From NCBI GenBank assembly GCA_015233115.1, contig JADFYJ010000005.1, positions 22,359-86,358 on the forward strand: DNA of 64,000 bases. The letters are read 5' to 3'. This DNA comes from Candidatus Omnitrophota bacterium (GTDB lineage: Bacteria; Omnitrophota; Gorgyraeia; Zapsychrales; Zapsychraceae). How positions within the stretch are numbered: the stretch's first letter is position 1; each line of letters opens with the position of its first letter. The notes under the pieces are model-generated. The model did not search any database. It saw nothing but the letters and a program-made list of their open reading frames with translations, and had not been told where the DNA came from. Made by a program: the position numbers and the translations under genes. Shown in pieces: positions 1-18,216 of this stretch.

Positions 1-477
1 TCCCAATACTCCGGGAATAAGCCGCACCACCGTATCGACCACAACCATAGCCGGAAGTTCGCCGCCAGTCAGCACATAATCCCCAATCGAAACGCATTCA
101 TCCACGACGAGGTCACGCACCCGTTCATCAATGCCTTCATAATGACCGCATATAATAACTAAATTTTTTTCATTTGACAAGTGTTTTGCTAAACTTTGTT
201 TCAAAACCGTTCCGCTAGGGCACATGAGCAAAACCTTGCATTTCCTGCGGCCTTTAATCTTTTTGACCGCGTCCACCAAAGGCTGAGCCAGCATCACCAT
301 CCCCGGCCCCCCGCCAAACGGCCGGTCATCTACCTTGCGGTGCTTATCATCCGTGTAATCCCGAAGATCATGGACAGTGATCGAGCACAGCTTCTTCTCC
401 TGCGCCCGTTTCATAATAGACTCCTCAAGCACAGGGCGGAACATTTCAGGAAAAATGGTAATAATGTCGATTTTCAT
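1..477 (-). CDS. trmD: tRNA (guanine37-N1)-methyltransferase TrmD; N-terminus at 477, C-terminus truncated by window edge
   Basis: Reverse-strand translation from ATG at 475-477 reads [13 protein letters not shown]...GGGPGMV, the TrmD SPOUT signature. No ORF-track entry because it runs off the window. Confidence 0.8.
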
Positions 478-489
478 AATTTGACTCCA

Positions 490-789
490 TCAATTAAGAC
501 TGCAAGCATGTACTTCCTGAGAAATTTTATTTCCTAATTCTTCTAATTCAATATCCAAGTCATATGCTGATTGCAGATTCATCCAAAATTGCGGCGATGT
601 TTTAAAATAAATTCCTAAGCGTAAAGCCGTATCCGCTGTGACCCGTCTTTTGCCTAACACAATTTCATTAATCCGCCGCGGAGGAACTTTAATATCCCGG
701 GCTATCCGGTTTTGACTGATACATAATGGCTTTAAAAATTCCTCATTCAGCACTTCACCGGGATGTATAGGGCTTAATTTTTTATTCAT
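490..789 (-). CDS. higA: HigA-family antitoxin (XRE-type HTH)
   Basis: 99-aa ORF. HTH region NRIARDIKVPPRRINEIVLGKRRVTADTALRL is typical of HigA/VapI antidote proteins. Lies immediately downstream of the higB-like gene. Confidence 0.7.
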   Translation of the reverse strand: MNKKLSPIHPGEVLNEEFLKPLCISQNRIARDIKVPPRRINEIVLGKRRVTADTALRLGIYFKTSPQFWMNLQSAYDLDIELEELGNKISQEVHACSLN

Positions 790-810
790 AGGATTATTTC
801 TCCTTTATTC

Positions 811-1092
811 TTAATGATAGTCGACTATTTCGACATCAAACGCGTTATTTTCGCGCCATGTAAAACAAATTCTCCATTGATCATTAATGCGAATACTATG
901 CTGTTCTTTCCTCGCCCCTTTTAATTTTTCAAGCCTATTGCTTGGGGGAGCCGTCAAGTCTCTTAAGTCAATCGCGCTGTCAAGCATCCGGAGCTTCCTC
1001 AAAGCAATCTGCTGGATGCTTCCGGGCAATTGTTTAGAAAAAATTCGATTAAATACTTTTTCTGTTTCTTTGCACCTAAACAATTTGATCAT
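811..1092 (-). CDS. higB: HigB-like toxin (RelE/ParE superfamily plasmid-maintenance killer)
   Basis: 93-aa ORF. Toxin-first order (higB then higA) is typical of HigBA operons. C-terminal motif ...FDVEIVDYH. Confidence 0.65.
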   Translation of the reverse strand: MIKLFRCKETEKVFNRIFSKQLPGSIQQIALRKLRMLDSAIDLRDLTAPPSNRLEKLKGARKEQHSIRINDQWRICFTWRENNAFDVEIVDYH

Positions 1093-1162
1093 AATGAAAG
1101 TATATAACGCGTAACGTTATATGTCAAGATTTCTGCTCCGCCCGATTCAAAAGGCAATAAAG

Positions 1163-3322
1163 TTACTGACCTATCTTAGGGAACCATTTCAACTTATCTG
1201 CCTGCTTACCTAACTCCGTTTTCCCGCACGTCCTGATCAACGCCTTATAAAATTTATCCGCAAGCATAAGGTCGCACCTGGCAAGAAAAAGTCCTCCCTG
1301 GCATAATGCCTTGGCTTTAAGTTCATCGTTGTCCGAAAGAAGCTGGGCGCTTTGCCACATTAAATCCGCCGCCTTATAACGATAGTGAAATCTTTTATCC
1401 GGTGAAGGCAGAGAACTCAACGCACGACTTTCCTCATCACCAGTCCCATAGAAAAAACCGCGATGCGCGAATCTATGTTTTATGGACTCATAATTTGGGA
1501 AGGCTCCCCTATCCACAAAACCATCCGGATCCAACTCTGTTCCCATTAATTCCATTCCATAACGTCGCACTATAATTCCCGCATCATAATATGCTTTGGC
1601 CCGATCTTTTTTCGCTATCCTTTGATTCTGCGCATTCAAAAGTAAAACGTGAAGTTTGCCTAATGTCTCTCTCGGATTAATATTTTCATTCACCTGTTCA
1701 TATTCCGAATCACCTGACTTGTTTTTCTTTTCAATATATCCGCGGTCAATTTTTATTTTTGTTGGCATATATTTTCCGGCAGGCTCTAACTCTCCTTGTC
1801 GCACCAACCGCCTGGCCAAAAGATATTCCAACGCTTCCCGCAAAGTAAGTCCGCCGTCATCAATATTTTCGGCGAACTCGCCTTCATATATTTTTTGTTT
1901 GTTAGCTAACACAGAGTTCCCTTTGTTATTGTTCAAGAAATCCTCAAGCTCCTGAACAGTTAATACTTTTTCTGCCACATAAGCGATATCTTCCCAATAT
2001 TTTCCTTTCAGAAGAAAATCAAAAGCCATGGTGTATTCTTTTCTACTTAATTTTAAAACCGCCATATTTGAATTGAGCTCGCGCCCAATGTCTTCTTGAA
2101 AAAACATGTTTTTATCAGGACTTTTTTCAAATGAAGATATGACTTTCGACAATTTTCCAATAGCCTCGTCAACTTTTTCGTCTCGCAATGACAGTTTAAA
2201 ATCAATAAACCGAGCCAAAGGCGTTGAGAGTTTCGAAGATGTCAACCAGCGCTTTGCCAACGCCCTGTCACCTTTAATATAATATAGCCATGCTACTCGG
2301 TCTGCGTAATCAATCGGATCTGTTTTCTTTAATCCCTCGATCGCGGACAAAAGCCTGCTGAAAAAATCTTTATGCTTTTTATCGTCATTCAATTCCATTT
2401 CTTCCCAATATGGCCGGGAAATGGCCCATCCCAAAAGAATATTCCTCGCTGTTTTATCATTTACAATCGTCGCGATAGTGTTATCCGTTGTCTCAGAAAC
2501 ATTACTGCAAACCCAATTCAATGAATCAATATCCATCTGCTCTAAATAATGTTTAAGACTTGAAACATAATCTTTCTGTTCATACTCAGCCAGCGCTTGC
2601 CAGCCTAAACTTTCCTTCGCAAGACCCAATGAATCTATATAACCATTTTCAGCCATTTTTCTGGTTTGTTCAAAAAATGGAATCGCGCGTTTCTGATCAC
2701 GCAAAGATAAATACGCTTTGCCAATCATAAAGGAAGCCCAGGTGCTCTTATATTTACGTTCAGATTCCGGCAATTTAAATATTTTTGACCATTCGTTGAT
2801 GGACGCAAAAAAATCATTGATGTGATACTTTCCAGCACCAGTTAAATATAATCTAAATTCTTCCGGCACCTTTGACGTCAAAATAATACTTAGTTTATTC
2901 TTTAACAAATTGAGTTTAACCCGCTCGTGACTGCGAAATCTTCCCCCGTACCATAACGAATGGTCTTCTACTAAAAATGTCTGAAGATAGGAATTTATTT
3001 CGTCGCGCGATTTTTGATATGACATAACAGCATCATGGAATTCTTTTTCCGTAATTTGGGAAGCTTTTAAAGATTTTCTCAAATCACCCTCATCAACATC
3101 AGAAACACGTTTAGGCTGTGGGGCTTTTATTTCAAACGGCAGTTTATTTCCGCCTGTTCGTTTTAATTCAAACAAAAAATTCCCTTCAGGAATAGCTAAA
3201 AATTTTTCTTTGGAACTTCGGACAAAATAGGCATCATCATATTCCGGCGCACAGGCCAGCGCCAATGACGCGAATGAAAACAAAAAAACTATTATCAAAA
3301 AATAAAGATTAATTCGTTTCAT
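1163..3322 (-). CDS. Large secreted lipoprotein of unknown function (719 aa from internal Met with lipobox LALAC)
   Basis: Track ORF 1163..3463 has a non-signal N-terminal extension. Internal start MKRINLYFLIIVFLFSFASLALAC (ATG 3320-3322) is preceded by GTGAGG and gives a signal peptide plus lipobox. No recognisable catalytic motif. Confidence 0.5.
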   Translation of the reverse strand: MKRINLYFLIIVFLFSFASLALACAPEYDDAYFVRSSKEKFLAIPEGNFLFELKRTGGNKLPFEIKAPQPKRVSDVDEGDLRKSLKASQITEKEFHDAVMSYQKSRDEINSYLQTFLVEDHSLWYGGRFRSHERVKLNLLKNKLSIILTSKVPEEFRLYLTGAGKYHINDFFASINEWSKIFKLPESERKYKSTWASFMIGKAYLSLRDQKRAIPFFEQTRKMAENGYIDSLGLAKESLGWQALAEYEQKDYVSSLKHYLEQMDIDSLNWVCSNVSETTDNTIATIVNDKTARNILLGWAISRPYWEEMELNDDKKHKDFFSRLLSAIEGLKKTDPIDYADRVAWLYYIKGDRALAKRWLTSSKLSTPLARFIDFKLSLRDEKVDEAIGKLSKVISSFEKSPDKNMFFQEDIGRELNSNMAVLKLSRKEYTMAFDFLLKGKYWEDIAYVAEKVLTVQELEDFLNNNKGNSVLANKQKIYEGEFAENIDDGGLTLREALEYLLARRLVRQGELEPAGKYMPTKIKIDRGYIEKKNKSGDSEYEQVNENINPRETLGKLHVLLLNAQNQRIAKKDRAKAYYDAGIIVRRYGMELMGTELDPDGFVDRGAFPNYESIKHRFAHRGFFYGTGDEESRALSSLPSPDKRFHYRYKAADLMWQSAQLLSDNDELKAKALCQGGLFLARCDLMLADKFYKALIRTCGKTELGKQADKLKWFPKIGQ

Positions 3323-4568
3323 CGACTTTGGCCTCACTTTTCCTAATAAATAAATCTTTATTATCAGACACCCTAAACCATGCAGCCATCTTTTTTTGAG
3401 AAACACGCGGCGGCCGGCCCGTAATCCGCATCCCTTTTCCATCAGGAAGTGTCGAATAATCAAAATCGCCTAAAACATCAAAAACAGGGCTTCCCGTATC
3501 CCAAAAAATTTCAAACGACGCATTATTTGAAAAATTTATTTCCCCATCGTTTACAAGATAAACCTCTGTTATTCCATCGTCCTTGCGAACCAATTCAACA
3601 TCCAGATGACCGGCAGGTATTTCCCGTTTAATGACACGCGTAAATGTTTTCAAATCCCAGTTGAACCGATCTGAAGATAAAGGAAGCCGGAACCAACAAA
3701 CACCGCGGAAATTCTGTGACTTGACAGAATCAAGATATTTTAAAAAACCAATTATTTCTTGAGGGTCAGCAAAAACCATTTTCTTTTTTATTCCCTCAGC
3801 AAAATACTGTACGCCGCCTTCTGCTCTAAGTCCTATAAATTCATCAACTTTGCTGTAAGCAACCTCATAACCATATGTGGGGAGAGAAACATAGAAAGGC
3901 TTATTTAAATTAATCGTGCGGTTAAAATATTCAATGGACTTATCTTTTTGAAAAATATACTGCGACGTGTTTTTATTTTTGGGAAGTTCAAAAGAATGCA
4001 GCTGAAGAACATAGATATCAACCCAATTTAAAAGCGATAAGAAGTCTTTGCTTTCCAGCCAGGTCGGCAAAGCCGTGATTGAAACGGATTTCTCTTTGTA
4101 TGCAGATCGAAAAAGTTTTAGAAATCTTGCAAAATCATTCAATTTTGCCGTAGGACAATCATAATCTAATTCAATACCTGTAATATCAACGCCTGACTGC
4201 TTTGCCTGCTCAATAATGCCGTGGATCCCGTCAACAAGACACCTAACAATTGGCTGCTGATCCTGCACTTTTAAATATCGGGATAAATCCGTCCGCATGC
4301 GAATATCTATGACAGTTTTCTTTTTTGACCTTAAATATTCCCATTTAACAGCTACTTTTGAAAAACTAATATGGCCATTCTCAACCGTTAAATCACCTGC
4401 CAAAACCTTGAACTGAGTGCTTTGACTATTCAACTTCCCGATTGCCGCTTCTATTTCAGACCGCCAGCTCCTTTGCCAGATGTAAACCGAATTTTCATCG
4501 GCTCCTGATAAATTACAAACAGAAAGTACAAAAACAATGGTAAATATAATTTTTAAACCTACTTGCAT
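3309..4568 (-). CDS. DUF3142-like secreted protein (putative TIM-barrel glycoside-hydrolase-like fold)
   Basis: 435-aa ORF. Likely start at MQVGLKIIFTIVFVLSVCNLSGA (ATG 4566-4568), a signal peptide. Family resemblance from memory only. Overlaps upstream SLT gene by 10 nt and downstream lipoprotein gene by 14 nt, so the three look like an operon. Confidence 0.45.
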   Translation of the reverse strand: MQVGLKIIFTIVFVLSVCNLSGADENSVYIWQRSWRSEIEAAIGKLNSQSTQFKVLAGDLTVENGHISFSKVAVKWEYLRSKKKTVIDIRMRTDLSRYLKVQDQQPIVRCLVDGIHGIIEQAKQSGVDITGIELDYDCPTAKLNDFARFLKLFRSAYKEKSVSITALPTWLESKDFLSLLNWVDIYVLQLHSFELPKNKNTSQYIFQKDKSIEYFNRTINLNKPFYVSLPTYGYEVAYSKVDEFIGLRAEGGVQYFAEGIKKKMVFADPQEIIGFLKYLDSVKSQNFRGVCWFRLPLSSDRFNWDLKTFTRVIKREIPAGHLDVELVRKDDGITEVYLVNDGEINFSNNASFEIFWDTGSPVFDVLGDFDYSTLPDGKGMRITGRPPRVSQKKMAAWFRVSDNKDLFIRKSEAKVDETN

Positions 4569-5269
4569 ATAAAAATATGGAGATGATCTTTTGTAATCCA
4601 ATGACCTTTGGTGCATTGAATTTTTGGTTTGATGAACTTTTTGTCTTTGGCTTTCTTATCTGCTTGAGATTTCTTCGCGAATTCAGCTTCATATTCAGAA
4701 ACCCGGGGAACATAGCCTTTTATTTTATTAATAGTATCGGCACTGATATCTTTGGATGGCATCAAAAAATCTTTAACAGCATCCCATCTCGTCGGATCTT
4801 TTCCTGCTTTGGACGCCAACTGTTGTGCTTTGCCAATAGTACCCTGCCCTCCCGTATAAGCGGCAAAATCAAATTTTTCACGTTCGACAGGGTCAATTAT
4901 TGGGTATGTAAATAGTTTGGTACCAAGATTGGTTCTTTTAGAAAACGCGTAGTCAATATCTTTCAAATATCGTGCAGCGGCTATTGAAGAGTAATCAATA
5001 TCAAAACGTTGATCATTATCTTTAGAAACGTATAATCCATAATGTTCCGCCAAGGACTTCTGCAGCTGAAATTCACCCGCAGCGGCCGAAATACCCCGAT
5101 TATTCAACTTAGTTCCAAAACTGCTTTCTTTAGCATAAATTGCCTCAAGTGTATTTACATTCAACACATCTTTATCATCAAAATAAGTTGACGCATTTTC
5201 AAGAGCCTTACGGATATGTCCGTCTTCCTTTACAACCCAGATGTCTACATTAGTCATTTTCTTAGGCAT
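4559..5269 (-). CDS. Lytic transglycosylase, SLT domain, no signal peptide, basic C-terminal tail
   Basis: 236-aa ORF. Catalytic region ...AKESSFGTK...AAGEFQLQ matches the SLT E-S motif and GLMQ-like block. N-terminus MPKKMTNVDIWVVKEDG is not hydrophobic. Confidence 0.6.
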   Translation of the reverse strand: MPKKMTNVDIWVVKEDGHIRKALENASTYFDDKDVLNVNTLEAIYAKESSFGTKLNNRGISAAAGEFQLQKSLAEHYGLYVSKDNDQRFDIDYSSIAAARYLKDIDYAFSKRTNLGTKLFTYPIIDPVEREKFDFAAYTGGQGTIGKAQQLASKAGKDPTRWDAVKDFLMPSKDISADTINKIKGYVPRVSEYEAEFAKKSQADKKAKDKKFIKPKIQCTKGHWITKDHLHIFICK

Positions 5270-5443
5270 AAATTCGTCCTTTCCGTGCAGAGAATATTTG
5301 TTGCGGAAAAATATAAAAGATACGAAGGCCAGATAAAATCATTGCACGATCCTGCACTTGGTGTTGATGCCCGGGAATAAATTAATTATAACAAAGTAAA
5401 ATTTATATTAAAATTATCTATCTTTTTTATAAGTAATAATTTT

Positions 5444-5707
5444 TCATTCATAATGAGTCCACATCCGTACAACTTTAACGACCATCTCTTTCTTATATAT
5501 TTGATAAACTATGCGATGCTGGATGTTAATACGTCGGGAATAAAAACCGGTTAAATCTCCGACTAGTTTTTCATACGAAGGCGGATTTTGAAAAGGATTT
5601 TGTTCTAAGATATTGAGAATCATTAAAGCTTTTGGCTTTAATCCGACGTTGAGAAGCCGTTTTGCGTCAGATTGAGCCTGTTTGGTAAAGATTACTTTCC
5701 AAGCCAT
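5444..5707 (-). CDS. yoeB: YoeB/Txe-family toxin (RelE superfamily mRNA interferase)
   Basis: 87-aa ORF, ...YSRRINIQHRIVYQIYKKEMVVKVVRMWTHYE is a characteristic YoeB C-terminus. Directly downstream of a Phd/YefM antitoxin gene. Confidence 0.7.
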   Translation of the reverse strand: MAWKVIFTKQAQSDAKRLLNVGLKPKALMILNILEQNPFQNPPSYEKLVGDLTGFYSRRINIQHRIVYQIYKKEMVVKVVRMWTHYE

Positions 5708-5711
5708 TTGC

Positions 5712-5969
5712 TTACCATTTGAGATGCGTTGAACAATTCTTTAGTGAAGTTTTGCCGCCAGCTATAATGGATTCCCGCATGCCTGGAATCGATACGAGAT
5801 AGAGAGTTTCCTGTATAGACCGCCAATCATCTTCAGAAATAAGAACAGCATTATTTCTTTTGCCGGTAATCTGAATGGGTTCATGTGATTGGGCGGAGTC
5901 ATCAACCAATTGATAGAGTTTGGCTCTCGCTTTAGTCGCAGTAATAGTTGTCATTTTTGTTTCTCCCAA
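5712..5969 (-). CDS. yefM: Phd/YefM-family antitoxin
   Basis: 85-aa ORF. N-terminal TTITATKARAKLYQLVDDSAQSHEPIQITGKRNNAVLISEDDWRSIQETLYL is the YefM fold signature. 4-nt gap to yoeB. Confidence 0.7.
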   Translation of the reverse strand: MGETKMTTITATKARAKLYQLVDDSAQSHEPIQITGKRNNAVLISEDDWRSIQETLYLVSIPGMRESIIAGGKTSLKNCSTHLKW

Positions 5970-6024
5970 GACTAAGCGTACTATATAGCGTACGCATTGT
6001 CAATGAATAATTTTTTTCTAAAAT

Positions 6025-6798
6025 TTACAAAGATTGTTCTATAAATTCCCTAAACAAAACAACTTTCTTCACTTCACCGGGAGCATAAAGGAACGGCTCT
6101 ACGTCTAAAGCTAATTGTTTAAAATTAAAATTTTTACAATGATCATTCAACTTGGTCTTTAATTGTTGGGCATTCTTTATCCCCAGTTTAGCAGTCAAAT
6201 ACGGATAATTTGGCGTGGTCTTCCCAGACAAATAAACTATGTCGAAAAAATCACGACCCATCGGACGCGGTCGATTTAAAGCGGCAAACAACTTTTGGGA
6301 CAAAAGGATATCAACAGGAACAACATTAATTCTCAAAAAAACATCAAATTTGTTAAGAATAATTTTATCCGATGAATACTTGAATTTCTGCGGCTGGGTA
6401 TCGACTTGGATTAGAATTTTTTCTTCCTTGTGGCCGGTTAATCCCAGATCAAAAAGAACATCAGAAAATCTGATATAAGCTCTGCATACATCTCCGAGAT
6501 TAATACGAACCTGGGTCGTGTACCCTGAAAGTTTTAACCGTTTCATGATTTCCTGTGTCATTTTCTCAAAATCCTTAGGCTTGAGAGAAAGATTGTCAAA
6601 GTCTAAATCTTCAGAAAACCGCGTATTCCCGTGAACAATTTGGATAGCCGTCCCTCCCATAAATGAAAGTCCTGCGCCATATGGAGAATCAAAAATAATT
6701 TCCAGAATTTTGTATTGTAGATACTCTCTAAGAATATTCCGTTTAAACGGCTTCAGGTTTGTTGGATAAAATGATTCAATGTTTTTTAAACTAAGCAT
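6025..6798 (-). CDS. AbiEii/AbiGii-family nucleotidyltransferase toxin (type IV TA / abortive infection)
   Basis: 257-aa ORF. GGTAIQIVHGNTRFSEDLDFDN matches the AbiEii GG[ST]A...R.S.D[IL]D motif. Confidence 0.65.
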   Translation of the reverse strand: MLSLKNIESFYPTNLKPFKRNILREYLQYKILEIIFDSPYGAGLSFMGGTAIQIVHGNTRFSEDLDFDNLSLKPKDFEKMTQEIMKRLKLSGYTTQVRINLGDVCRAYIRFSDVLFDLGLTGHKEEKILIQVDTQPQKFKYSSDKIILNKFDVFLRINVVPVDILLSQKLFAALNRPRPMGRDFFDIVYLSGKTTPNYPYLTAKLGIKNAQQLKTKLNDHCKNFNFKQLALDVEPFLYAPGEVKKVVLFREFIEQSL

Positions 6799-7444
6799 GG
6801 TTCATGACCTCCAAAAGTAATTTTATCCGTTCGGACAAGCCGGGCTGTCCGGAAAGCAACGCATATCTGTGAATAAGCCGCTTGTTAATAATCTTGGAGA
6901 ACAACTCCTTGTTAATTCTCATCCCTTCGAAATCTTCCTCGGCTCGAATAGATGGATTCAAATATAAATGATCGATAAACATTTTTTCCGGTGAAGCCAT
7001 TTTAAAATGCTTTCCACGGTGTTCGATCAGATCATAGCCAAAAAACATGTCCGGCTTGATGGTCCTATAACTAAATTGTGCTAATGGTGTTTGAAACTGG
7101 TAGGTTCTTCGTGTGGCAACTGCGGTAACCTCATAAACGCTTTCAGGGATGAGCCCGTAATAAGCGAAAGCCATTTGTAAAGAAACATATGAAGGCGCAT
7201 AAATCTTATTGGATATTTCAAATAGAACGCCTTCATCTACTTGTAAATCAGAAAAAACGTAATAACCTCGGGTCAATTTCTTAATGTAACCCTTATTTTG
7301 CCATTCAATGAGTCGGGGCCTATAAAAATCTTGTTCAACGCGTCGGATGTCGTTCAGCGAGAAAACCGTAAAATCTTTAAGCAAATTATGAAAATCCAGG
7401 TATCTCATAGCATTTCGTGAAAGTACGTTAAATAGTAACTTCAC
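6791..7444 (-). CDS. AbiEi-like antitoxin/transcriptional regulator, partner of AbiEii
   Basis: 217-aa ORF overlapping AbiEii start by 8 nt, the typical AbiEi-AbiEii arrangement. Assignment is by context and size rather than a clear motif. Confidence 0.45.
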   Translation of the reverse strand: MKLLFNVLSRNAMRYLDFHNLLKDFTVFSLNDIRRVEQDFYRPRLIEWQNKGYIKKLTRGYYVFSDLQVDEGVLFEISNKIYAPSYVSLQMAFAYYGLIPESVYEVTAVATRRTYQFQTPLAQFSYRTIKPDMFFGYDLIEHRGKHFKMASPEKMFIDHLYLNPSIRAEEDFEGMRINKELFSKIINKRLIHRYALLSGQPGLSERIKLLLEVMNHA

Positions 7445-7507
7445 GAAATAAGTATATAACGAGAGGAAAAGGAAATCAAGAGCAATATCGTATAACGGAT
7501 TATGCGT

Positions 7508-8632
7508 CTATTTTAATTCTGAACCATATTTTGTCAAAAATTCAGTCATAAAACTCTGATACTGATCTTGTTCTATGGCTTGGCGGATGCGGCGCATTAG
7601 ACTGATGTAGAAATAGAGATTATGGTAAGTCACGAGCTTAAGGCCGGTGATTTCTTTGAGTTTTAATAAATGGCGAATATAACTTTTAGAATATTTTTTA
7701 CAGACTAAACAGTCACAGTCCGGGTCAATTGGGCCGAAATCCGTTTTAAATTCTTCATTACGGACAATGATGCGGCCGCGGCTGGTAAAGGCTGTGCCAT
7801 GGCGCCCAAACCGGGTTGGCAGGCACGTATCGAACATATCTATGCCTTCACCAACAGCTTTGACAATCTGGTCTGGGAGACCGATGCCCATAAAATAATG
7901 CGGCTTATCAGCCGGTAAAAACGGCATGACCCATTCTAAGGCCTCAAACATATCTTTAACCGGCTCCCCTACACTAACTCCGCCGATGGCATACGCGTCA
8001 AAATCAACGTCAATAATTTCTTTGGCTGATCGTTCCCGCAAATCTTTATAAGTCGCTCCTTGAATGATGCCGAATCCAAATTGATTACGGTCGCTCCTGC
8101 GGTTTTCCAAAAAATATTTCCTGGCGCGCTTGGCCCACAATGTTGTCAAATATACGGAACGCTCGGCTTCTTCGCGGCTGCAGGGATAGGGTGCGCAAAC
8201 ATCCAAAGGCATAATCATATCCGCGCCTATGGATTGCTGAATATCCATCACCTTTTCAGGAGTAAAGAAATGATACGCTCCATCAATATGCGACTGAAAT
8301 TCCACGCCGTCTTCTCTGAGTTTTCGGAGTTTGGCCAAACTAAAAACCTGATATCCGCCACTGTCCGTCAAAGTCGGCTTATGCCAGTTCATGAAATTAT
8401 GCATACCGCCGGCAGCCTCAAAAACCTCCAACCCAGGACGTAAAAATAAGTGGTACGCGTTGCACAACACAATCTCTGCGCCCGTGTCATTAACGTCCTC
8501 AAACGTCAAACTCTTGACAGACGCGTTCGTGCCCACAGGCATAAAAAAAGGAGACTGAATCTCCCCATGCGCCGTAGTCACAACTCCGCGTCGAGCTTTA
8601 GTATTCTTATCGATCTTAATTAATTTAAACAT
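7508..8632 (-). CDS. tgt: Queuine tRNA-ribosyltransferase (tRNA-guanine transglycosylase)
   Basis: 374-aa ORF with C-terminal zinc site CDCLVCKKYSKSYIRHL and TIM-barrel blocks typical of Tgt. Confidence 0.9.
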   Translation of the reverse strand: MFKLIKIDKNTKARRGVVTTAHGEIQSPFFMPVGTNASVKSLTFEDVNDTGAEIVLCNAYHLFLRPGLEVFEAAGGMHNFMNWHKPTLTDSGGYQVFSLAKLRKLREDGVEFQSHIDGAYHFFTPEKVMDIQQSIGADMIMPLDVCAPYPCSREEAERSVYLTTLWAKRARKYFLENRRSDRNQFGFGIIQGATYKDLRERSAKEIIDVDFDAYAIGGVSVGEPVKDMFEALEWVMPFLPADKPHYFMGIGLPDQIVKAVGEGIDMFDTCLPTRFGRHGTAFTSRGRIIVRNEEFKTDFGPIDPDCDCLVCKKYSKSYIRHLLKLKEITGLKLVTYHNLYFYISLMRRIRQAIEQDQYQSFMTEFLTKYGSELK

Positions 8633-8643
8633 TTCTGCCTTCT

Positions 8644-9645
8644 TTACAAAATTACCATAGCATCCCCATAACTGAAAAATCTGTACTTCTCTTTGATGGC
8701 TTCCTGGTATGCTTGACGAATCAGGTCGGTTCCGGCTAACGCGCAGACTAGCATTAATAATGTGCTTTTGGGTAAATGGAAATTCGTAATTAAACCGTCC
8801 AGTATTTTAAATTCACACCCGGGATACAAAAATATATCTGTTGAGCCAGTAAGTTTACCACATCTTGCTACAGATTCAAGTACTCGTCCGCTAGTTGTGC
8901 CTACGGCGATAATTTTATGCCCCTCTGCTTTTTTAGCAGTAATCATTTTCCAAACGGCAGGTGTTAAAAAATATTCTTCAATATGCATTTTATGTTGTGT
9001 GATATCTGCGACATCTACGGGTTTAAATGTACCATATCCGACGTGCAAAGTCACCCGTTCTAAGCTGTGCCCCTGCGTTCTAAGCTGTTCTAGAAGTCTA
9101 TTCGTAAAATGTAATCCGGCAGTCGGCGCGGCTAATGATCCATCATGCTTCGCATAAACTGTTTGATAATATTTTCGATCTTCAGCCCGGTCTTCATGGT
9201 GAATGTATGGCGGAAGTGGAATGTGTCCAATTTTCTCCAGCCGTTTAATGATGTGGGGGAAGTTAAAACGAACCAGGCGATTGTCTTTATTGACTACAGT
9301 CGCGATGATCCCATCTTTGAAAAAAAGTTCTTCGCCTTCTTTCAATCGCCGAGTCGGGCGCATTAATACTTCAAAAGTCCAGTCATCAACTTGATGAAGC
9401 AAAAATATTTCCGCTTCACCGCCGGTTTGCCTCTTGGTCAAAAGACGGGCAGGAATAACCTTACTGTCATTCAGCACTAAAACTGACTTAGGCGGGAGAT
9501 ATTTTTCTATGTGGGAAAAATAATCATGCCGAATCGTTCCAGCTTTACGGTCAACGACCATTAAACGAGCCTGATCCCGTCTGTGCAAAGGATGCTGGGC
9601 AATCAATTCTTCCGGCAAATCATAATCAAAGTCACTTAAACGCAT
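8644..9645 (-). CDS. queA: S-adenosylmethionine:tRNA ribosyltransferase-isomerase
   Basis: 333-aa ORF beginning MRLSDFDYDLPEELIAQHPL, the canonical QueA N-terminus. Adjacent to tgt. Confidence 0.9.
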   Translation of the reverse strand: MRLSDFDYDLPEELIAQHPLHRRDQARLMVVDRKAGTIRHDYFSHIEKYLPPKSVLVLNDSKVIPARLLTKRQTGGEAEIFLLHQVDDWTFEVLMRPTRRLKEGEELFFKDGIIATVVNKDNRLVRFNFPHIIKRLEKIGHIPLPPYIHHEDRAEDRKYYQTVYAKHDGSLAAPTAGLHFTNRLLEQLRTQGHSLERVTLHVGYGTFKPVDVADITQHKMHIEEYFLTPAVWKMITAKKAEGHKIIAVGTTSGRVLESVARCGKLTGSTDIFLYPGCEFKILDGLITNFHLPKSTLLMLVCALAGTDLIRQAYQEAIKEKYRFFSYGDAMVIL

Positions 9646-9656
9646 ATGATCCTGGT

Positions 9657-10163
9657 CTAAATGAGTTTTTTCAGTTCCGCAAAAACCGTATCAAAATTCG
9701 GCGAATCCGTCAATTCTTTAACCAATTGCACATAACGGACTTTATTCGTTTTATCAACGATCAAAACAGAACGCGCGGTTAAAGCCAATTCCTTAATCAG
9801 CAAACCATATTTAATAGAAAAATCCGATGATTGATAATCAGACAATACCTCCACGCCGCTGATCCCTTGTGCCGCGCAAAAACGTTTTTGGGCAAACGGC
9901 AAATCTTTGCTAATCCCCAAAATCACCACATCTTTGGATAAACCAGCCGCCCGCTTGTTAAATTCACGAACCTGCAAATCACACACCGGCGTATCAATTG
10001 ACGGAAAAGTCGTAATAACTTTTATTTTCCCCGCGTAATCTTTTAACGAACGCTTCTGCAGATCGCCATTAACCACCGCAAAATCAAGCGCCGCATCTCC
10101 CACTTTAACTAAATTCCCGTCCAAATTTAACGGCCCGCCTTTAAAAGTAATTTGAGTGCCCAT
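9657..10163 (-). CDS. tpx: Thiol peroxidase (atypical 2-Cys peroxiredoxin)
   Basis: 168-aa ORF with FPSIDTPVCDLQVREF peroxidatic Cys context and overall Tpx length. Confidence 0.8.
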   Translation of the reverse strand: MGTQITFKGGPLNLDGNLVKVGDAALDFAVVNGDLQKRSLKDYAGKIKVITTFPSIDTPVCDLQVREFNKRAAGLSKDVVILGISKDLPFAQKRFCAAQGISGVEVLSDYQSSDFSIKYGLLIKELALTARSVLIVDKTNKVRYVQLVKELTDSPNFDTVFAELKKLI

Positions 10164-10211
10164 AATTATCCCCTATCTTGACTGATTTTTTAAAAAATAA
10201 CATATCGTTTT

Positions 10212-10240
10212 GTAGGGGCGATCTCCTGATCGCCCGCTAC
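10212..10240. repeat. 29-nt GC-rich REP-like palindrome, copy A (GTAGGGGCGATCTCCTGATCGCCCGCTAC)
   Basis: 8-bp stem GGGCGATC/GATCGCCC with a 4-nt loop. An inverted copy lies at 10312-10340 and a third at 38414-38446. Stands out as GC-rich in an AT-rich intergenic region. Confidence 0.7.
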
Positions 10241-10311
10241 AAGATATTCGCTTTTTTATTTTTATATAACAAACGAAAAACACCTGAATATTAAATTTAT
10301 AAATCTTTTAT

Positions 10312-10340
10312 AGTGCGGGCGATCAGGAGATCGCCCCTAC
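10312..10340. repeat. 29-nt GC-rich REP-like palindrome, copy B (inverted relative to copy A, 70 nt away)
   Basis: AGTGCGGGCGATCAGGAGATCGCCCCTAC is the exact reverse complement of copy A. Sits just 3' of the mscS stop, so a terminator role is possible. Confidence 0.7.
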
Positions 10341-10351
10341 AACCGAGTCTT

Positions 10352-11167
10352 TCACTTCTCACTTTTATTTTTTATATGTATTTCCCTCTGCGGATAGGGC
10401 AGAGTGATTCCATTTTTTTCTAATTCGATTTTTGCCCGTTCCGTTATATCAAACAAAACCGCCCAATAATTGCTGGGTTTGGCCCAAGGACGGCACACGA
10501 GATTTACACTGCTTTCCGCTAATTCTGATACAGCTACCATTGGCGCCGGATCTTTTAAAACATTAGGGTTGGACAACATAACCTGCATTAAAATATCTTT
10601 AGCTAATTTTATATTATCATTATACGAAATCCCGAATACCATATCAATACGACGATAAGGAACTGCGCTCAAATTCACAATATTATCATTAATAATCTTG
10701 GAATTCGGTACCATGACATGCTGATTATCAGCTGTCGCGATCAAGGTATTAAAAATTTTTATTTCTTTAACTTCACCGGTAACCCCGCCAGCCTGAACCG
10801 CATCCCCGAGACGAAAAGGCTTTAAAATAATAATCATCACACCAGCCGCAAAATTGGATAATGATCCCTGCAATGCTAAACCGATCGCTAAACCTGCGGC
10901 ACCGACGATTGCGACGATCGAAGTGGTCTGCACGCCCAATTGATTCAAAGCCGCGATAATCACAAATGCTAAAATACCAAAATAAACCAATTCTTTTAAA
11001 AATGAAATCAGCGTGGCATCCAGGTTAGAGCGACGCATAACTTTTTCTAAAAACCGCGCAATGACTCTGGCCAAAATTTTACCGATCAAAAATATGACCA
11101 GCGCCCAAACTAAATTGACTCCGTATTTCAAACCAAATTCATTAACCATATCCCAATTAAAACTCAT
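10352..11167 (-). CDS. mscS: Small-conductance mechanosensitive channel (MscS family)
   Basis: 271-aa ORF with three N-terminal TM helices and the conserved MscS beta-domain ...LGDAVQAGGVTGEVKEIKIFNTLIATADNQHVMVPNSKI. Confidence 0.8.
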   Translation of the reverse strand: MSFNWDMVNEFGLKYGVNLVWALVIFLIGKILARVIARFLEKVMRRSNLDATLISFLKELVYFGILAFVIIAALNQLGVQTTSIVAIVGAAGLAIGLALQGSLSNFAAGVMIIILKPFRLGDAVQAGGVTGEVKEIKIFNTLIATADNQHVMVPNSKIINDNIVNLSAVPYRRIDMVFGISYNDNIKLAKDILMQVMLSNPNVLKDPAPMVAVSELAESSVNLVCRPWAKPSNYWAVLFDITERAKIELEKNGITLPYPQREIHIKNKSEK

Positions 11168-11172
11168 ATTAT

Positions 11173-11661
11173 TTATCCTTTGAGGCCTTGTTTATCTATT
11201 CTAAATCCAAATTGCCAGTATTCGCATTTTACCTTTGCGTTCTCGGTAATCTTGATATCTACTTCGTCATCTTCGCGAATCAGCCCGTGCCATATTCCTT
11301 TAAACAATATAACTGGCTTATCCAAAGAAAAACACTCAATTTTTTTAAAATCCTGTTCACGGCTTACAAAAAATAATGCCTTTCCTTTTACCGGTTCAAA
11401 AGTCTCGTCCGAATCCGGATGGCATTCCATTCTGCCGATCGTGCGGTCGCGCAAAACCAAATACGCCACCCGCCAGCCAGTCTTGGCTTCTGAGGTATGC
11501 ACAATCCGCCATAAATTCCGCTTATCACCCTTCTTTTCTCTAAGGGGATAATCAATGATCCGCCCATATTTTCGGAAATTTACTGAATTAATCGATAGAA
11601 TTTTTAACTCATTATTTATCTGTACCATATGCAAATTTCGTGTCCCCCGAATTTCTAACAC
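11173..11661 (-). CDS. Hypothetical protein, possibly cupin-like
   Basis: 162-aa ORF with no confident family assignment. Has a 6-nt gap to mscS, so probably co-transcribed. Confidence 0.35.
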   Translation of the reverse strand: MLEIRGTRNLHMVQINNELKILSINSVNFRKYGRIIDYPLREKKGDKRNLWRIVHTSEAKTGWRVAYLVLRDRTIGRMECHPDSDETFEPVKGKALFFVSREQDFKKIECFSLDKPVILFKGIWHGLIREDDEVDIKITENAKVKCEYWQFGFRIDKQGLKG

Positions 11662-11671
11662 TGTTGATTAC

Positions 11672-12694
11672 TTATTTCGTTACCGCTGAAATATGCTGTG
11701 CCATGTCCTTAACACGAACATACCATAGCTTCCCCTTTTTTAGAGCCTTGAGTTCGCCACGGTTTATCAAGTTGCGAAGGTAATCCTGGGAATAATCATA
11801 AAGCTGAGCCAAATCACGCAAAGGAATAACTGCATCCTTGCTTATACTTTTTGTCTTTCCTGTCTTCATGCGCTTGATACTTTCAACCAAACGCCCAAGA
11901 ACAATTTTTTTAAGCTCGGAGAGCGGTTTATCAGTCACAATAGCATCAAGCTGCTCGAGCGACAACTTCTTCCCTTTTTCAATCCTCCGGCTGATCTCCT
12001 CAAAACAATCATCCCCCTGCTCTAAGGCACTGTAATAAAGGTCACGATCCAACTTTGAAAAACCCTTGATCGCAATATTCAGATGCCCGCTACCTATAAG
12101 AATGTAGTTTAGTAAAATACGACCAGCACGGCCATTACTATCTCTGAAAGGATGAATTGTTTCAAACCAGGTATGCGTTAAAGCTGCCACTGTTATAGGC
12201 GAATACTTGGACAGTTTCAAATGCCTATTAGTCCAGCGAACCATCAAGTCTACAGCTTCACGAATATAAAAGTGATCAACAGGCTTAAACTTCGACTGCG
12301 TGACTTCGGCCGTCATCTTGCGAAAATCCCCGATCTCACCTATATAACTCCCGAGCTCCTTTTCATACCGCATGAGGAGCGTATGGATCTGTTTTACGTC
12401 AGCCATCCTCAGGCAAAACTCACCCTCAAGCCACTGATTGTAGGCATATTCGTAGATCGTGCTCGCCGCTTCAAAATATCCCAGAATAGCGGCCGCCTTT
12501 TCCTTATTGGTCCGGCTATTATGTTCCAGAACATCAATCAACTCCTGTCGGTTGGCAAAAACCCCTTCCATAGCGATAGAGTTACGAATTTCCTCCCGGA
12601 ACAGCGAATACCATTCTGCATTCTGGACCGTTACAAGCCGTCCATCGCCGGACCGAAGCGCAGCAATAGCTTTCTTCAGACTCTTTTCATCCAT
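11672..12694 (-). CDS. Fic/Doc-family protein (AMPylator-type) with C-terminal helix-turn-helix
   Basis: Fic motif HPFRDSNGRAGR (HPFx[DE]GNGR core). C-terminal excisionase-like HTH ...DYLRNLINRGELKALKKGKLWYVRVKDM. Start taken at the second in-frame ATG (12692-12694) because AGGAG lies 9 nt upstream. The track start at 12703 has the SD abutting the ATG. Confidence 0.8.
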   Translation of the reverse strand: MDEKSLKKAIAALRSGDGRLVTVQNAEWYSLFREEIRNSIAMEGVFANRQELIDVLEHNSRTNKEKAAAILGYFEAASTIYEYAYNQWLEGEFCLRMADVKQIHTLLMRYEKELGSYIGEIGDFRKMTAEVTQSKFKPVDHFYIREAVDLMVRWTNRHLKLSKYSPITVAALTHTWFETIHPFRDSNGRAGRILLNYILIGSGHLNIAIKGFSKLDRDLYYSALEQGDDCFEEISRRIEKGKKLSLEQLDAIVTDKPLSELKKIVLGRLVESIKRMKTGKTKSISKDAVIPLRDLAQLYDYSQDYLRNLINRGELKALKKGKLWYVRVKDMAQHISAVTK

Positions 12695-12710
12695 AAACAC
12701 CATCTCCTAT

Positions 12711-12919
12711 TTGCGAACCCCCGCAGCTGGTTCGGAAATAATATACCACATTATCGTCGATATGCAAATAGAAATTTTATAAATATTCCGAACTTTCCGA
12801 ACCAATACATCGCGCCCCACACTTCACTTTCCGAACCACCAATAAAGGTTCGGAAATAAAATAATATTATTCGACAATATATAAAATTTTTCTTATAACT
12901 TTTGCGAATTTTTCGAACC
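12711..12919. promoter_or_regulatory. Array of operator-like repeats: two 29-nt palindromes TTTSCGAACC-N9-GGTTCGGAAA (12711-12739, 12828-12856) plus tandem half-sites (12785-12803, 12901-12919)
   Basis: Read directly: TTTGCGAACCcccgcagctGGTTCGGAAA and TTTCCGAACCaccaataaaGGTTCGGAAA, then aTTCCGAACtTTCCGAACC and TTTGCGAATtTTTCGAACC. All lie between the divergent Fic gene and a plus-strand small ORF. Confidence 0.5.
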
Positions 12920-12933
12920 TAAACAAGGAGGAC

Positions 12934-13008
12934 ATGCAAACCTTAATTGACAAACTAATGAAAAATAAATGGCGTTTTCGTCAAGGCCTTGAATGGTATA
13001 GCTGGTAG
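12934..13008 (+). CDS. 24-aa small ORF MQTLIDKLMKNKWRFRQGLEWYSW with perfect Shine-Dalgarno (AAGGAGG, 6-nt spacer), divergent from Fic
   Basis: Not in the ORF track (too short). Has ATG, a strong RBS and an in-frame TAG, and is followed by a hairpin plus T-run at 13049-13076. Coding status not provable from sequence alone. Confidence 0.35.
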   Translation: MQTLIDKLMKNKWRFRQGLEWYSW

Positions 13009-13048
13009 TGTTGCCGGCTGGGATTTCTTACGGGATCAGAGGAGACGA

Positions 13049-13076
13049 AATAGGGCGCTGTCCCCTATTCTTTTAT
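13049..13076 (+). terminator. Rho-independent terminator for the small plus-strand ORF
   Basis: AATAGGGcgctgtCCCTATT followed by CTTTTAT. Confidence 0.5.
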
Positions 13077-13078
13077 AA

Positions 13079-13116
13079 ATCAATAGTGACAGGCATCGAT
13101 GCCTGTCACTATTGAT
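13079..13116 (-). terminator. Perfect 38-nt palindrome ATCAATAGTGACAGGCATCGATGCCTGTCACTATTGAT, likely terminator of the FadL-like gene (convergent terminator pair)
   Basis: Located 20 nt past the stop of the minus-strand OMP gene. On the minus strand it is followed by TTATAAAAGAATAG (U/A-rich). Confidence 0.5.
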
Positions 13117-13135
13117 TTAACCCTATTGCCTCTGA

Positions 13136-14422
13136 TTAAAAATCCCAAGTCAAAGAACCCATGCCAAACTGGGCAAAGGTCTTATATGTGCCTGCTATGT
13201 TAGCATCGGTATCTGTAATCTTCCTCGGCTGGAAGATTCTCGTAACATATGCTAAATCAAAAGATAAATTGTTGGTCAATTTAATTCCCGTCCCAACTGT
13301 TACACAACTGCTATTAGAATCAGCCAGCCATAAAGGATAATTTGTCTTATTAACCGGACTGGGGAAATACGCATATCCCATTCTCATAGCCCACCGGTCT
13401 GTTACCCAATATTCCGTACCGATTCCGCCGGATATTGTATCTTTAAAATGCAAAGAAGTCGAAGCGCCAATGTTGCTTAAAAGCCCGTTAGAATAATCAT
13501 TGGGGTCAACATAATTTATCGCGCTTTGACGCACAGACGACCAATTCATCCACTCCACATCCGCATTGATTCTCCATTTTTCTGTGGGACGGAAGCTATA
13601 ACCTAACGTCACACTTTGCGGTAATTTCATTTTTGAAGATATTTCCGTTTCATAATTTGTCTTACCGCCAAAAAGAGCCATACCTGCGTAGCCACCTAAA
13701 TTATCCAAGTACAATTTACCGTGCATATCCAATTGAATCGGACTACGGTAAACTAAACCAATTTGATTCTGATCATTAATTTTAAATAAGCCAGAGATGT
13801 GATACCCCATCCCGTCATTATCTTTTCCCTTGGCCTCAATATTGCCATTTCCACCTGCAAGATTATCAAACTTTACAGTTTTATTGATTCTGGACATTTC
13901 AAAATCAAATCCAGCACCCAGAGAAAACCGTTCCGTAACTTTCACCCCTATAGCGGCAATAGCTGTAGAGTCAACCATATCAGTTTTTATTGCTTTATAT
14001 TTCGCAAAACTGTTATCTGCCCATTCTGTTCCCAGACCCCAAGTTGAAACAACCCCAAATCCGAATGCCACACGGTCATTTTTCATTTTATCCGCGAAGA
14101 AGAAATGCGGAATGGTGAACTCTTTTACTTTTCCGGCAGAATCTTCCTGACCAGCAGCAGAGGAATGATAATGTTGGCGCAATTGTAAAGCAGTCGCACC
14201 TAGCTGTATATGACGGCCTTCATTGAGTTGAGTTAAACCTGCGGGATTGTAATAAACTGCGGATGGAGTGTCGGCTTCGCCTGCAAACGCGAAACCCATG
14301 CTTTCGGCTTTTGGATCAACCACTTGCGCATTATACCCGCCTGATCCTGCGGCCATTGCGGGACTTACCATAGATAATATCCCACCCAACAAAAAAAGAA
14401 CAAACAGTATCGCCTTGTTCAC
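13136..14422 (-). CDS. Outer-membrane beta-barrel transporter, FadL/OmpP1 family
   Basis: 428-aa ORF with signal peptide MNKAILFVLFLLGGILSMVSPAMAAG. Ends in a C-terminal aromatic residue (...LTWDF) typical of OM beta-barrels. Glycine/aromatic alternation throughout. Confidence 0.65.
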   Translation of the reverse strand: MNKAILFVLFLLGGILSMVSPAMAAGSGGYNAQVVDPKAESMGFAFAGEADTPSAVYYNPAGLTQLNEGRHIQLGATALQLRQHYHSSAAGQEDSAGKVKEFTIPHFFFADKMKNDRVAFGFGVVSTWGLGTEWADNSFAKYKAIKTDMVDSTAIAAIGVKVTERFSLGAGFDFEMSRINKTVKFDNLAGGNGNIEAKGKDNDGMGYHISGLFKINDQNQIGLVYRSPIQLDMHGKLYLDNLGGYAGMALFGGKTNYETEISSKMKLPQSVTLGYSFRPTEKWRINADVEWMNWSSVRQSAINYVDPNDYSNGLLSNIGASTSLHFKDTISGGIGTEYWVTDRWAMRMGYAYFPSPVNKTNYPLWLADSNSSCVTVGTGIKLTNNLSFDLAYVTRIFQPRKITDTDANIAGTYKTFAQFGMGSLTWDF

Positions 14423-14511
14423 TTTCTCCCCCCCTTGTTATTTTGTTCAAAAGTGAAATACGCTTTTATTATATATGGTAAATTGCATTTACCAAATAAA
14501 ATTCTATTTTT

Positions 14512-15942: not shown

Positions 15943-16149
15943 AATAAGACCTTGGCACCCGGGTTCACAAATTTTTTAAATTTATATGTGTTCCAAGTTT
16001 ATATATTTCTGTGTGATATGGAAAATATAACACATGAAATCAATTTTGCAAAGAAATTATTTTTTGTACTGAGATGCCTATTTTATGTTAAGTAGCGTAA
16101 TCGACGGGAGTAAGACTTTAGGGAAATAAATAAGTGTAAAAAATATTTT

Positions 16150-16803
16150 TTATTTACACTTATCCAGCAAATTTTTAATTTCTTGAAGATTATCGCAACA
16201 ACGGGAAATTTTATCAAAATTAATTTCAGAAACATTCTTATGAAGGCTTAAATGAGAAAGATACACAACCGGAAATTGAAGTTTATTGCGAATTTTGTCC
16301 ACAATAGTTTCAATGTTAATGGTGGCGTAACGCAGTTTTTCCAAAAATTCTGAAATAGAATTTAAAGAAATTGAAATCCGCTGCATATCTTCCAGGGTAA
16401 TCACCGCTTCCTTATCCCTTTCCAAATAACTGCCAATGATAAGACTCATGATATTCAAATCATTTCCCAAATAATGCCCCATCAATTCTTTAACAGCCAA
16501 ATGCAAGCCTTTGCTTTCCTGAATGATTTTAACTAATTTAACATCATGGCTGTGCAAATGTTCAGGATAATAAATCTTACGGAAATGTTCAATCATCTTT
16601 GATACATAAATACCCATTTTTTCAAGGTCTGCCCTGCTCACCGATTCTTTGAGGTCTTGATAATATTCCAAGATAAAGCGGGTTGAGGTAAGATATTCAG
16701 ATATGACACTATAAATATACGCCCACATTTCTGTTGAAAGCGACACATGAGCAGCTTCAATTTCCGCGAATAATTCTTTTTCTTTCGGGTGTATATTAGC
16801 CAC
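16150..16803 (-). CDS. Hypothetical protein (possible His/Glu-rich metal-binding, hemerythrin-like?), downstream of a stand-alone receiver
   Basis: 217-aa ORF. His/Glu patches HFRKIYYPEHLHSHD and MGHYLGND. No confident family. Confidence 0.35.
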   Translation of the reverse strand: MANIHPKEKELFAEIEAAHVSLSTEMWAYIYSVISEYLTSTRFILEYYQDLKESVSRADLEKMGIYVSKMIEHFRKIYYPEHLHSHDVKLVKIIQESKGLHLAVKELMGHYLGNDLNIMSLIIGSYLERDKEAVITLEDMQRISISLNSISEFLEKLRYATINIETIVDKIRNKLQFPVVYLSHLSLHKNVSEINFDKISRCCDNLQEIKNLLDKCK

Positions 16804-16830
16804 GATAAACTTTTCGTTCTAGATTTACGA

Positions 16831-17229: not shown

Positions 17230-17241
17230 ATTTTCTCCTTC

Positions 17242-18198: not shown

Positions 18199-18216
18199 AA
18201 GTTTCTCCTGTAAGAG

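Follow-up and report, generated by a model that had tools for sequence, protein, structure and literature searches.

Why do nine genes, among them three toxin–antitoxin (TA) or abortive-infection (Abi) cassettes and a predicted cell-wall operon, stand between the housekeeping genes tgt and trmD? The question is raised by one end of a 64,000-nucleotide stretch of DNA from a Candidatus Omnitrophota bacterium (assembly GCA_015233115.1, contig JADFYJ010000005.1, positions 22,359 to 86,358 of the forward strand), hereafter called the window. An earlier interpretation, made without database searches (the sequence-only reading), saw here a defence island and proposed that its central operon, which encodes an SLT-domain protein, a DUF3142 protein, and a large TPR protein, might be a lysis cassette of phage origin or belong to an envelope-linked defence system not yet described. 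Our analysis points instead to an accretion of independent pieces, a mosaic in which unrelated cassettes stand beside a non-defence envelope operon, and we give this reading a probability of about 0.65.

Identification of an insertion at the tgt/trmD junction

The region and its flanks are arranged as follows.

1..477, minus strand: 5' part of trmD (159 codons, start at 477), truncated by the window edge; downstream flank
478..7507, minus strand: insertion of 7,030 bp with nine co-directional genes
7508–8632, minus strand: tgt (PF01702, E = 9e-151); upstream flank
8644–9645, minus strand: queA; upstream flank

The interval was compared with two other Omnitrophota metagenome-assembled genomes (MAGs), L014 and L015, which were recovered by a Tgt protein scan of GTDB species genomes. 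Tgt of the window was 65% identical to that of either genome, whereas the corresponding values for L014 and L015 were 54% and 56% for QueA and 71% and 67% for TrmD. Both genomes have the order spoIID-queA-tgt-trmD-rplS. In both, queA, tgt, and trmD are contiguous, and trmD begins 4 nt after the aligned part of tgt ends. The stop of tgt and the start of trmD overlap in L014, where rplS and rnhB follow; the L015 junction is equally tight. L014 and L015 share approximately 75% DNA identity and are collinear across 21 kb. The window backbone was collinear with both between spoIID (19.9 kb) and approximately 29.4 kb, as well as across queA-tgt and trmD, and two window blocks were missing from both, namely 478–7507 (tgt/trmD) and 9646–19845 (spoIID/queA). 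Because tgt and trmD abut or overlap in these two genomes, the block at 478–7507 is a lineage-specific insertion exactly at the tgt/trmD junction of a conserved queA-tgt-trmD-rplS operon. The synteny comparison suggested by the sequence-only reading bears out its placement of the island, and the same genes were not seen at this site as core genes in L014 or L015.

The GC content of the island (0.380) was the minimum among all 7-kb stretches of the window (mean 0.407, standard deviation 0.012), which is a modest effect, and GC at third codon positions was 0.31–0.43 within the island versus 0.48–0.55 in tgt and trmD. As had been stated earlier, the island lacks an integrase, and no Pfam match to an integrase or transposase was present among its nine products. 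No tRNA was found in a scan of the window, no Rfam family was found in the window, and no direct repeats were found at the island boundaries. A perfect 15-nt inverted repeat, with one arm over the trmD start codon (469–483) and the other inside abiEi (7382–7396), was rejected as a boundary signal, because approximately 31% of Markov-simulated sequences of the same length have one. Sigma-70-like promoters matching 11 of 12 positions were located on the minus strand before abiEi (7537–7510) and before higB (1127–1099); the counts of the promoter and terminator scan were not above those of shuffled sequences, and such promoter matches alone are no evidence.

The nine genes might alternatively be ancestral between tgt and trmD and have been deleted in the lineage of L014 and L015, or the arrangement might be an assembly chimera. 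This explanation draws on the small number of comparison genomes found, which are two and both distant, and on the source contig being metagenome-assembled. However, old operons typically have junctions such as the overlapping one in L014 and the equally tight one in L015, the GC content of the island is the window minimum, and its TA genes resemble plasmid genes of other phyla. In all other genomes that were examined, moreover, the DUF3142 and TPR genes and the SLT gene occupy different positions. Nor would a chimeric assembly break off and resume within a single operon, with the gene ends intact and the orientation kept. We consider a deletion or a misassembly very unlikely, and an insertion into the operon is the reading that we retain.

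The second block missing from L014 and L015, 9646–19845, adds 10.2 kb between spoIID (19846–21054) and queA, genes that abut or overlap in those two genomes. It contains tpx, mscS, a 162-aa open reading frame (ORF), another ORF of 217 aa, and genes for a protein with Fic and helix-turn-helix (HTH) domains (11672–12703), a FadL-like outer-membrane protein, a GT4 glycosyltransferase, an M48 peptidase, and a beta-CASP RNase.

Characterization of the toxin–antitoxin and AbiE cassettes

ORF analysis placed all nine island genes on the minus strand, at the coordinates first proposed except for the start of the DUF3142 gene. Six of them form the three cassettes.

490–789, minus strand: higA antitoxin, 99 aa, HTH (TIGR02607, E = 1.6e-30; PF01381)
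811–1092, minus strand: higB RelE-like toxin, 93 aa (PF05015, E = 3e-17, profile positions 9–91 of 91; phrog_3066, E = 3e-31)
5444–5707, minus strand: yoeB toxin, 87 aa (TIGR02116, E = 1.9e-25, profile positions 1–80 of 80; PF06769)
5712–5969, minus strand: yefM/Phd antitoxin, 85 aa (PF02604, E = 1.2e-18; TIGR01552)
6025–6798, minus strand: abiEii nucleotidyltransferase toxin, 257 aa (PADLOC PDLC02313, E = 1e-90, profile positions 1–253 of 254; PF08843, E = 1.6e-16)
6791–7444, minus strand: abiEi antitoxin/regulator, 217 aa (PADLOC PDLC02241, E = 2.7e-60; weak match to NF047376)

Full-length profile matches confirmed the three modules where they had originally been called, and judging from this profile coverage, HigBA, YefM-YoeB, and AbiEi/AbiEii all look like intact, ordinary members of their families. 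The abiEi and abiEii genes overlap by 8 nt, and a GGT...DLD nucleotidyltransferase motif is visible in the AbiEii sequence. Residues 13–214 of AbiEi align to positions 1–198 of the 199 positions of PDLC02241, and AbiEi may start at Met13 (position 7408). The yefM gene lies upstream of yoeB with a 4-nt gap, and the C-terminal H-Y motif of YoeB is present. The higB gene lies upstream of higA, and this toxin-first order is the reversed order typical of HigBA.

In a comparison with the plasmid sequences of PLSDB, higBA and yoeB matched TA genes on plasmids of cyanobacteria, Moraxella, Acinetobacter, and Carnobacterium at 66–73% DNA similarity, with higA at 66–70% nucleotide similarity to plasmid-borne higBA of cyanobacteria and Moraxella. 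These genes were the only island parts with detectable DNA similarity to PLSDB, and a plasmid origin of the island as a whole was rejected, as only TA genes match. TA and Abi cassettes such as these spread by horizontal transfer and settle in intergenic sites that tolerate insertion, and the plasmid-like DNA of the TA genes fits horizontally mobile cassettes. PADLOC recognised only AbiE in the island; the two type II TA modules were not scored as defence, and the central operon had no match to a defence family.

The central operon combines two gene pairs

The remaining three genes lie between the cassettes in one overlapping operon.

4559–5269, minus strand: predicted SLT-domain lytic transglycosylase, 236 aa, with a Lys-rich C-terminal tail (PF01464, E = 2e-8, 34 bits, cut-off 21.3, essentially the whole profile)
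3309..4568, minus strand: DUF3142 protein, 419 aa, with a predicted signal peptide, GH18-like (beta/alpha)8 barrel, and C-terminal beta-sandwich
1163–3322, minus strand: TPR/alpha-solenoid protein, 719 aa, predicted to be exported; partner of DUF3142

The SLT and DUF3142 genes overlap by 10 nt (4559–4568), and the DUF3142 and TPR genes overlap by 14 nt. The identity of the DUF3142 protein and the tight overlaps agree with the original description, whereas its start does not. The DUF3142 ORF spans 3309–4616, and the likeliest start is M17 at 4568, not 4616, which equals the NCBI gene model (P0054) and the N-termini of relatives.

The SLT protein belongs to a family of approximately 235-aa proteins that are 50–75% identical across Omnitrophota and have in common an N-terminal extension and a Lys-rich tail ending in GHWIT. 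Its catalytic-type glutamate (E48, in ESSFG) was invariant in 15 of 15 sequences, and the family also has AAGEFQ and AAYxGG motifs. No signal peptide or hydrophobic N-terminus was detected in the window protein or in 14 homologues, and the ORF begins at the first possible start codon past a stop. The earlier description of a signal-less enzyme with a basic tail is supported by these data. A C-terminal Cys/His motif was considered as a zinc knuckle and rejected as a family feature, because the cysteines are missing in three homologues. No sequence relatives of the SLT protein were found in the PDB at E ≤ 0.1.

Elsewhere, the SLT gene precedes not DUF3142 but a different gene, which encodes a 168–208-aa secreted protein or lipoprotein with an FG-GAP-like motif. 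The junction has the same form in each case, with the downstream ATG embedded in the final Ile-Cys codons of the SLT gene (ATATGCnnnTAG/TAA) in an ATATGC overlap of 10 nt. It was found at 966–975 in L104, at 7699–7708 in L106, and at 4559–4568 in the window, where it is used by DUF3142. The N-terminus of the window DUF3142 protein is native to its DUF3142 relatives, and the closest relatives of the DUF3142-TPR pair (L008, L109, and L006) lack the SLT gene. Because the SLT family has a different usual downstream partner, the three-gene operon, as judged from gene order, is a local chimera of two conserved pairs and not a conserved system. Most simply, the DUF3142-TPR pair would have replaced the usual partner of SLT by recombination at or near the junction. 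In L106, the SLT homologue adjoins RhuM/Fic, Bro-N, and AAA_14 genes.

A signal-less SLT enzyme recalls canonical endolysins, and the central operon could accordingly be imagined as a lysis cassette left by a degraded prophage, with SLT as the endolysin. The cationic C-terminal tail and a weak PHROG match of SLT to a lytic tail protein (E = 2.5e-5) are in keeping with this idea. However, the island contains no other phage genes, holin, or integrase; a blastn search against 50,697 phage records gave no match; and the DUF3142 and TPR proteins have no PHROG matches. The IMG/VR scan returned no SLT relative and one weak TPR relative, compared with at least 535 TPR relatives in metagenomes. The SLT family, conserved at 50–75% identity in many Omnitrophota genomes, also stands in a chromosomal context, beside housekeeping genes and with a fixed non-phage partner. 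Phage searches were thus negative or trivial, and a lysis cassette, which the sequence-only reading had proposed, is the least probable of the explanations considered here.

DUF3142 and the TPR protein form a co-inherited module

The 14-nt overlap of the DUF3142 and TPR genes recurs in L001, L004, and L009. Of the 58 distinct loci for which 1.3 kb or more of upstream sequence was available, 52 have DUF3142 directly upstream of the TPR gene on the same strand. The identities of DUF3142 and TPR proteins to the window copies correlate at r = 0.93 (n = 62), and the pair is maintained in relatives at 26–30% identity. These results show that DUF3142 and the TPR protein are a co-inherited module.

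The TPR family is very large. A word-indexed search gave approximately 50 full-length relatives at 26–63% identity and the metagenome scan at least 535. When 1.84 billion representatives were searched with a profile, 1,625 of them, each standing for a cluster at 50% identity, matched at E ≤ 1e-30. No dedicated Pfam model exists for this family. Metagenomes of soil, peat, and sediment commonly contain the pair, and such wide spread together with co-inheritance is the pattern of a physiological module.

The neighbourhoods of the pair vary by genome and are mostly housekeeping, with LpxI, Nuo, Band7, His, and fatty-acid genes as examples. A third conserved partner was sought by all-versus-all ORF clustering of 93 loci and rejected, as only subclade-specific neighbours emerged. 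Transporter or sugar-catabolism genes showed no consistent linkage to the pair. In one Omnitrophota subclade (L001/L002 at 3279–8714, and also L023 and L031), a conserved gene run lies ahead of the pair and encodes an 835-aa HSP70/MreB-like protein, a Hanks Ser/Thr kinase, an FHA protein, an RDD protein, and an HD-domain protein.

The neighbourhoods bear directly on whether the region is a coherent defence island in which SLT-DUF3142-TPR would be an undescribed envelope-linked defence or abortive-lysis effector acting alongside the TA and Abi genes. In favour of such an island, AbiE counts among the recognised defence systems, and the operon is flanked by two type II TA modules. In L008, the closest TPR relative, a run of defence-like genes lies downstream of the pair (5997–15738: SNF2/DEAD helicase, AAA_23, Dnd-associated protein, radical SAM, HATPase_c_3, SIR2_2, and DUF87); a PDDEXK gene and an IS200-like gene lie near the pair in L004; and the L106 neighbours of SLT named above are of a similar character. 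Against this, the three central proteins have no PADLOC match, and homologues of the window SLT, HigBA, YefM-YoeB, or AbiE genes were found at 0 of 82 distinct pair loci. Among 150 pair-flanking ORFs scanned with PADLOC, a coarse test that considered the top families among the matches listed, no family occurred in more than three ORFs, which encode Hanks kinases of a generic kind and all belong to one subclade. With housekeeping neighbourhoods, wide distribution, and co-inheritance on the physiological side, a coherent defence island is highly improbable. Neither the envelope-linked defence system of the sequence-only reading nor its cassette stabilised by TA modules finds support in these loci or in a chimeric operon. 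A narrower version, in which the SLT-DUF3142-TPR chimera was co-opted in this lineage alone as an envelope effector of the TA/Abi island and, as a signal-less set of muralytic enzymes set free or switched on by infection, would bring about abortive lysis, has in our estimate an even more remote chance of being correct. A mosaic of unrelated cassettes and a non-defence operon remains the preferred reading.

Functional prediction of DUF3142 and the TPR protein

The DUF3142 protein matched PF11340 at 120.7 bits (cut-off 30; E = 1.1e-34; profile positions 24–201 of 202). Its AlphaFold2 model (predicted local distance difference test [pLDDT] 91.5, predicted template-modelling score 0.87) comprises an N-terminal signal helix, a (beta/alpha)8 barrel, and a C-terminal beta-sandwich. 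Foldseek searches of the PDB with this model returned SleL (2e-11), GH18 chitinases, and TfeC (8y6t/9vtv, 9e-11; 8y6t with a TM-score of 0.72 when normalised by target length). Viral structure matches were GH18 chitinases of eukaryotic viruses, none of them close. The TfeC entry 8y6t, annotated as DUF3142 by sequence, was also the only PDB match to the DUF3142 family profile (2.6e-8).

The invariant motifs of the family are DYDCPT, SITALPTW, VLQxH, LPTYGY, and WFRLP. The GH18 catalytic motif DxxDxDxE with its acid/base glutamate is missing, and the corresponding strand reads G-I-E-L-D-Y-D-C-P-T. The DxD, followed by Cys-Pro, was invariant in 43 of 43 aligned DUF3142 sequences, and TfeC has D-F-D-A-G. 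Because the canonical DxxDxDxE is missing, we describe the modelled fold as GH18-like and do not file the protein in GH18. The name DUF3142 occurs in one paper of the searchable literature, and to our knowledge, the TfeC chitinase is the only characterised member. In two reviews (PMC13162877 and PMC13625719), TfeC is described as a type VI secretion system (T6SS) effector that degrades fungal chitin.

For the TPR protein, the ORF extends to 3463 (766 aa), and the 719-aa start is backed by an alignment of 24 homologues and by the NCBI gene model (P0001). Its AlphaFold2 model (pLDDT 86.5) shows a solenoid made up of alpha-helices apart from one beta-hairpin, with low confidence at residues 601–607. 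Foldseek and PDB profile searches gave only generic or designed TPR proteins. The N-terminus carries a signal peptide followed by a nearly invariant Cys, with residues at −3 and −1 following the AXA rule and E, Q, Y, or W often at −2. Because the residues before the conserved Cys follow AXA and not a canonical lipobox, cleavage by signal peptidase I appears at least as likely as lipidation. The length given in the earlier description of a 719-aa lipoprotein of unknown fold therefore holds, whereas the fold is a predicted TPR alpha-solenoid and the lipoprotein status is uncertain. The structure searches it had called for were informative for DUF3142, whose model is GH18-like, and gave only generic TPR matches for its partner.

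Five TPR relatives carry a C-terminal LysM (P0046, P0383 with three copies at 5e-34, P0339, P0332, and P0352), and two carry BNR/Asp-box domains (P0384 and P0388). LysM (PF01476) binds GlcNAc-containing glycans (GlcNAc, N-acetylglucosamine). The window TPR protein also lacks a clade-specific insertion of approximately 35 aa that is found in its closest homologues.

A proposed hydrolase–adaptor model for the pair

From the linkage, the fold, and the domain fusions, we somewhat favour a model in which DUF3142 and the TPR protein act as a hydrolase and its adaptor. Both proteins would be exported by Sec. DUF3142 would be the catalytic subunit, its GH18-like barrel cleaving beta-1,4 linkages in a GlcNAc-containing glycan, either peptidoglycan strands or a chitin-like polymer. 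The TPR solenoid would bind the enzyme and target or regulate it on the glycan, and the LysM or BNR modules of some TPR relatives would supply the glycan targeting. Co-translation behind SLT would point to peptidoglycan turnover or remodelling in this organism. Lytic transglycosylases are peptidoglycan-specific enzymes, and peptidoglycan is favoured as the substrate because the pair is translationally coupled to one. We put at roughly even odds that the pair is an undescribed, very widespread two-component exported system of this kind, acting on peptidoglycan or chitin.

The pair could instead serve nutrition or attack, as secreted enzymes that break down chitin outside the cell or the walls of prey or host cells. 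TfeC is an offensive chitinase, many chitinases are among the top structural matches, some TPR relatives have BNR/sialidase-like domains, and the soil, peat, and sediment metagenomes in which the pair is common would suit such a role. LysM binds both chitin and peptidoglycan and does not discriminate between this role and remodelling. However, transporter or sugar-catabolism genes are not consistently linked to the pair, the pair is coupled here to a lytic transglycosylase, and SleL, the best structural match, acts on peptidoglycan. An external role is unlikely on balance, although it is the least improbable of the alternatives, and peptidoglycan remodelling by an envelope operon is the role that we prefer.

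Several observations count against the picture of a mosaic insertion carrying an envelope-remodelling pair. Gene linkage is the sole ground for an interaction between DUF3142 and the TPR protein. DUF3142 lacks the GH18 catalytic glutamate (LDYDCPT), and its chemistry may differ. The window TPR protein lacks an in-frame segment of approximately 35 aa near residue 610 that is kept in nearly all relatives, and the protein could be impaired for that reason. The SLT enzyme has no signal peptide that would take it to peptidoglycan. The defence-like run in L008 lies downstream of the pair in its closest TPR relative, and both genomes that define the insertion are distant from the window, with Tgt 65% identical.

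The island itself is ordinary, as TA and Abi cassettes are well known to gather at sites that tolerate them; it is of value chiefly as a clean case of insertion at a junction of overlapping genes within an operon, in a phylum that has received little study. The pair is of wider interest. In Omnitrophota, as in many further lineages without cultured members, a DUF3142 gene nearly always comes with a gene for a large exported TPR protein. This gives a testable hypothesis for both families, namely a catalytic subunit with a glycan-targeting scaffold. The signal-less SLT family with its fixed secreted partner is flagged as well; like the conserved DUF3142-TPR pairing and the LysM fusions, it is a modest but concrete lead for uncharacterised families.

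Elsewhere in the window, three tandem genes for FG-GAP/VCBS beta-propeller proteins of 683, 929, and 604 aa lie at 50929–57876 on the plus strand, opposite to almost all other window genes.

Comparison with known systems

The island copies of AbiE, YefM-YoeB, and HigBA match their defining profiles over the full length, with the gene order and overlaps typical of each, and differ from known members in nothing notable; the host phylum is unusual. The window SLT protein has in common with family-1 lytic transglycosylases (PF01464; Slt70, MltE, and the enzymes of secretion systems) the SLT domain, the ES catalytic motif, and AYxGG. Its family differs from them in having no signal peptide or lipobox and in its conserved N-terminal extension and Lys-rich GHWIT tail.

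An exported TPR solenoid working with a periplasmic glycan enzyme is an idea generally known from NlpI-MepS, LpoA-PBP1A, and the TPR modules of AlgK, PelB, PgaA, and BcsC. These last four modules dock periplasmic glycan hydrolases. The window TPR protein resembles such adaptors no further than any generic TPR protein, has no linked synthase or outer-membrane porin, and is much larger than NlpI.

DUF3142 shares its (beta/alpha)8 barrel with GH18 enzymes, including the spore-cortex N-acetylglucosaminidase SleL (4s3j/4s3k) and bacterial chitinases, which gave the best Foldseek matches (2e-11 to 1e-7). In contrast to GH18, it does not keep the catalytic signature, and identity is 10–13% with TM-scores of only approximately 0.5. 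TfeC of Yersinia pseudotuberculosis (PDB 8y6t/9vtv) belongs to the same Pfam family, PF11340, and the shared region pairs IQxDYDCPT with LQIDFDAGT of TfeC and SITALPTW with GVTGLLDW of TfeC (profile match 2.6e-8). TfeC is a 262-aa antifungal effector delivered by a T6SS, with no signal peptide context and no TPR partner. The window DUF3142 protein, only 17–18% identical to it, has 419 aa, a Sec signal, an extra C-terminal beta-sandwich, and a TPR partner of roughly 750 aa.

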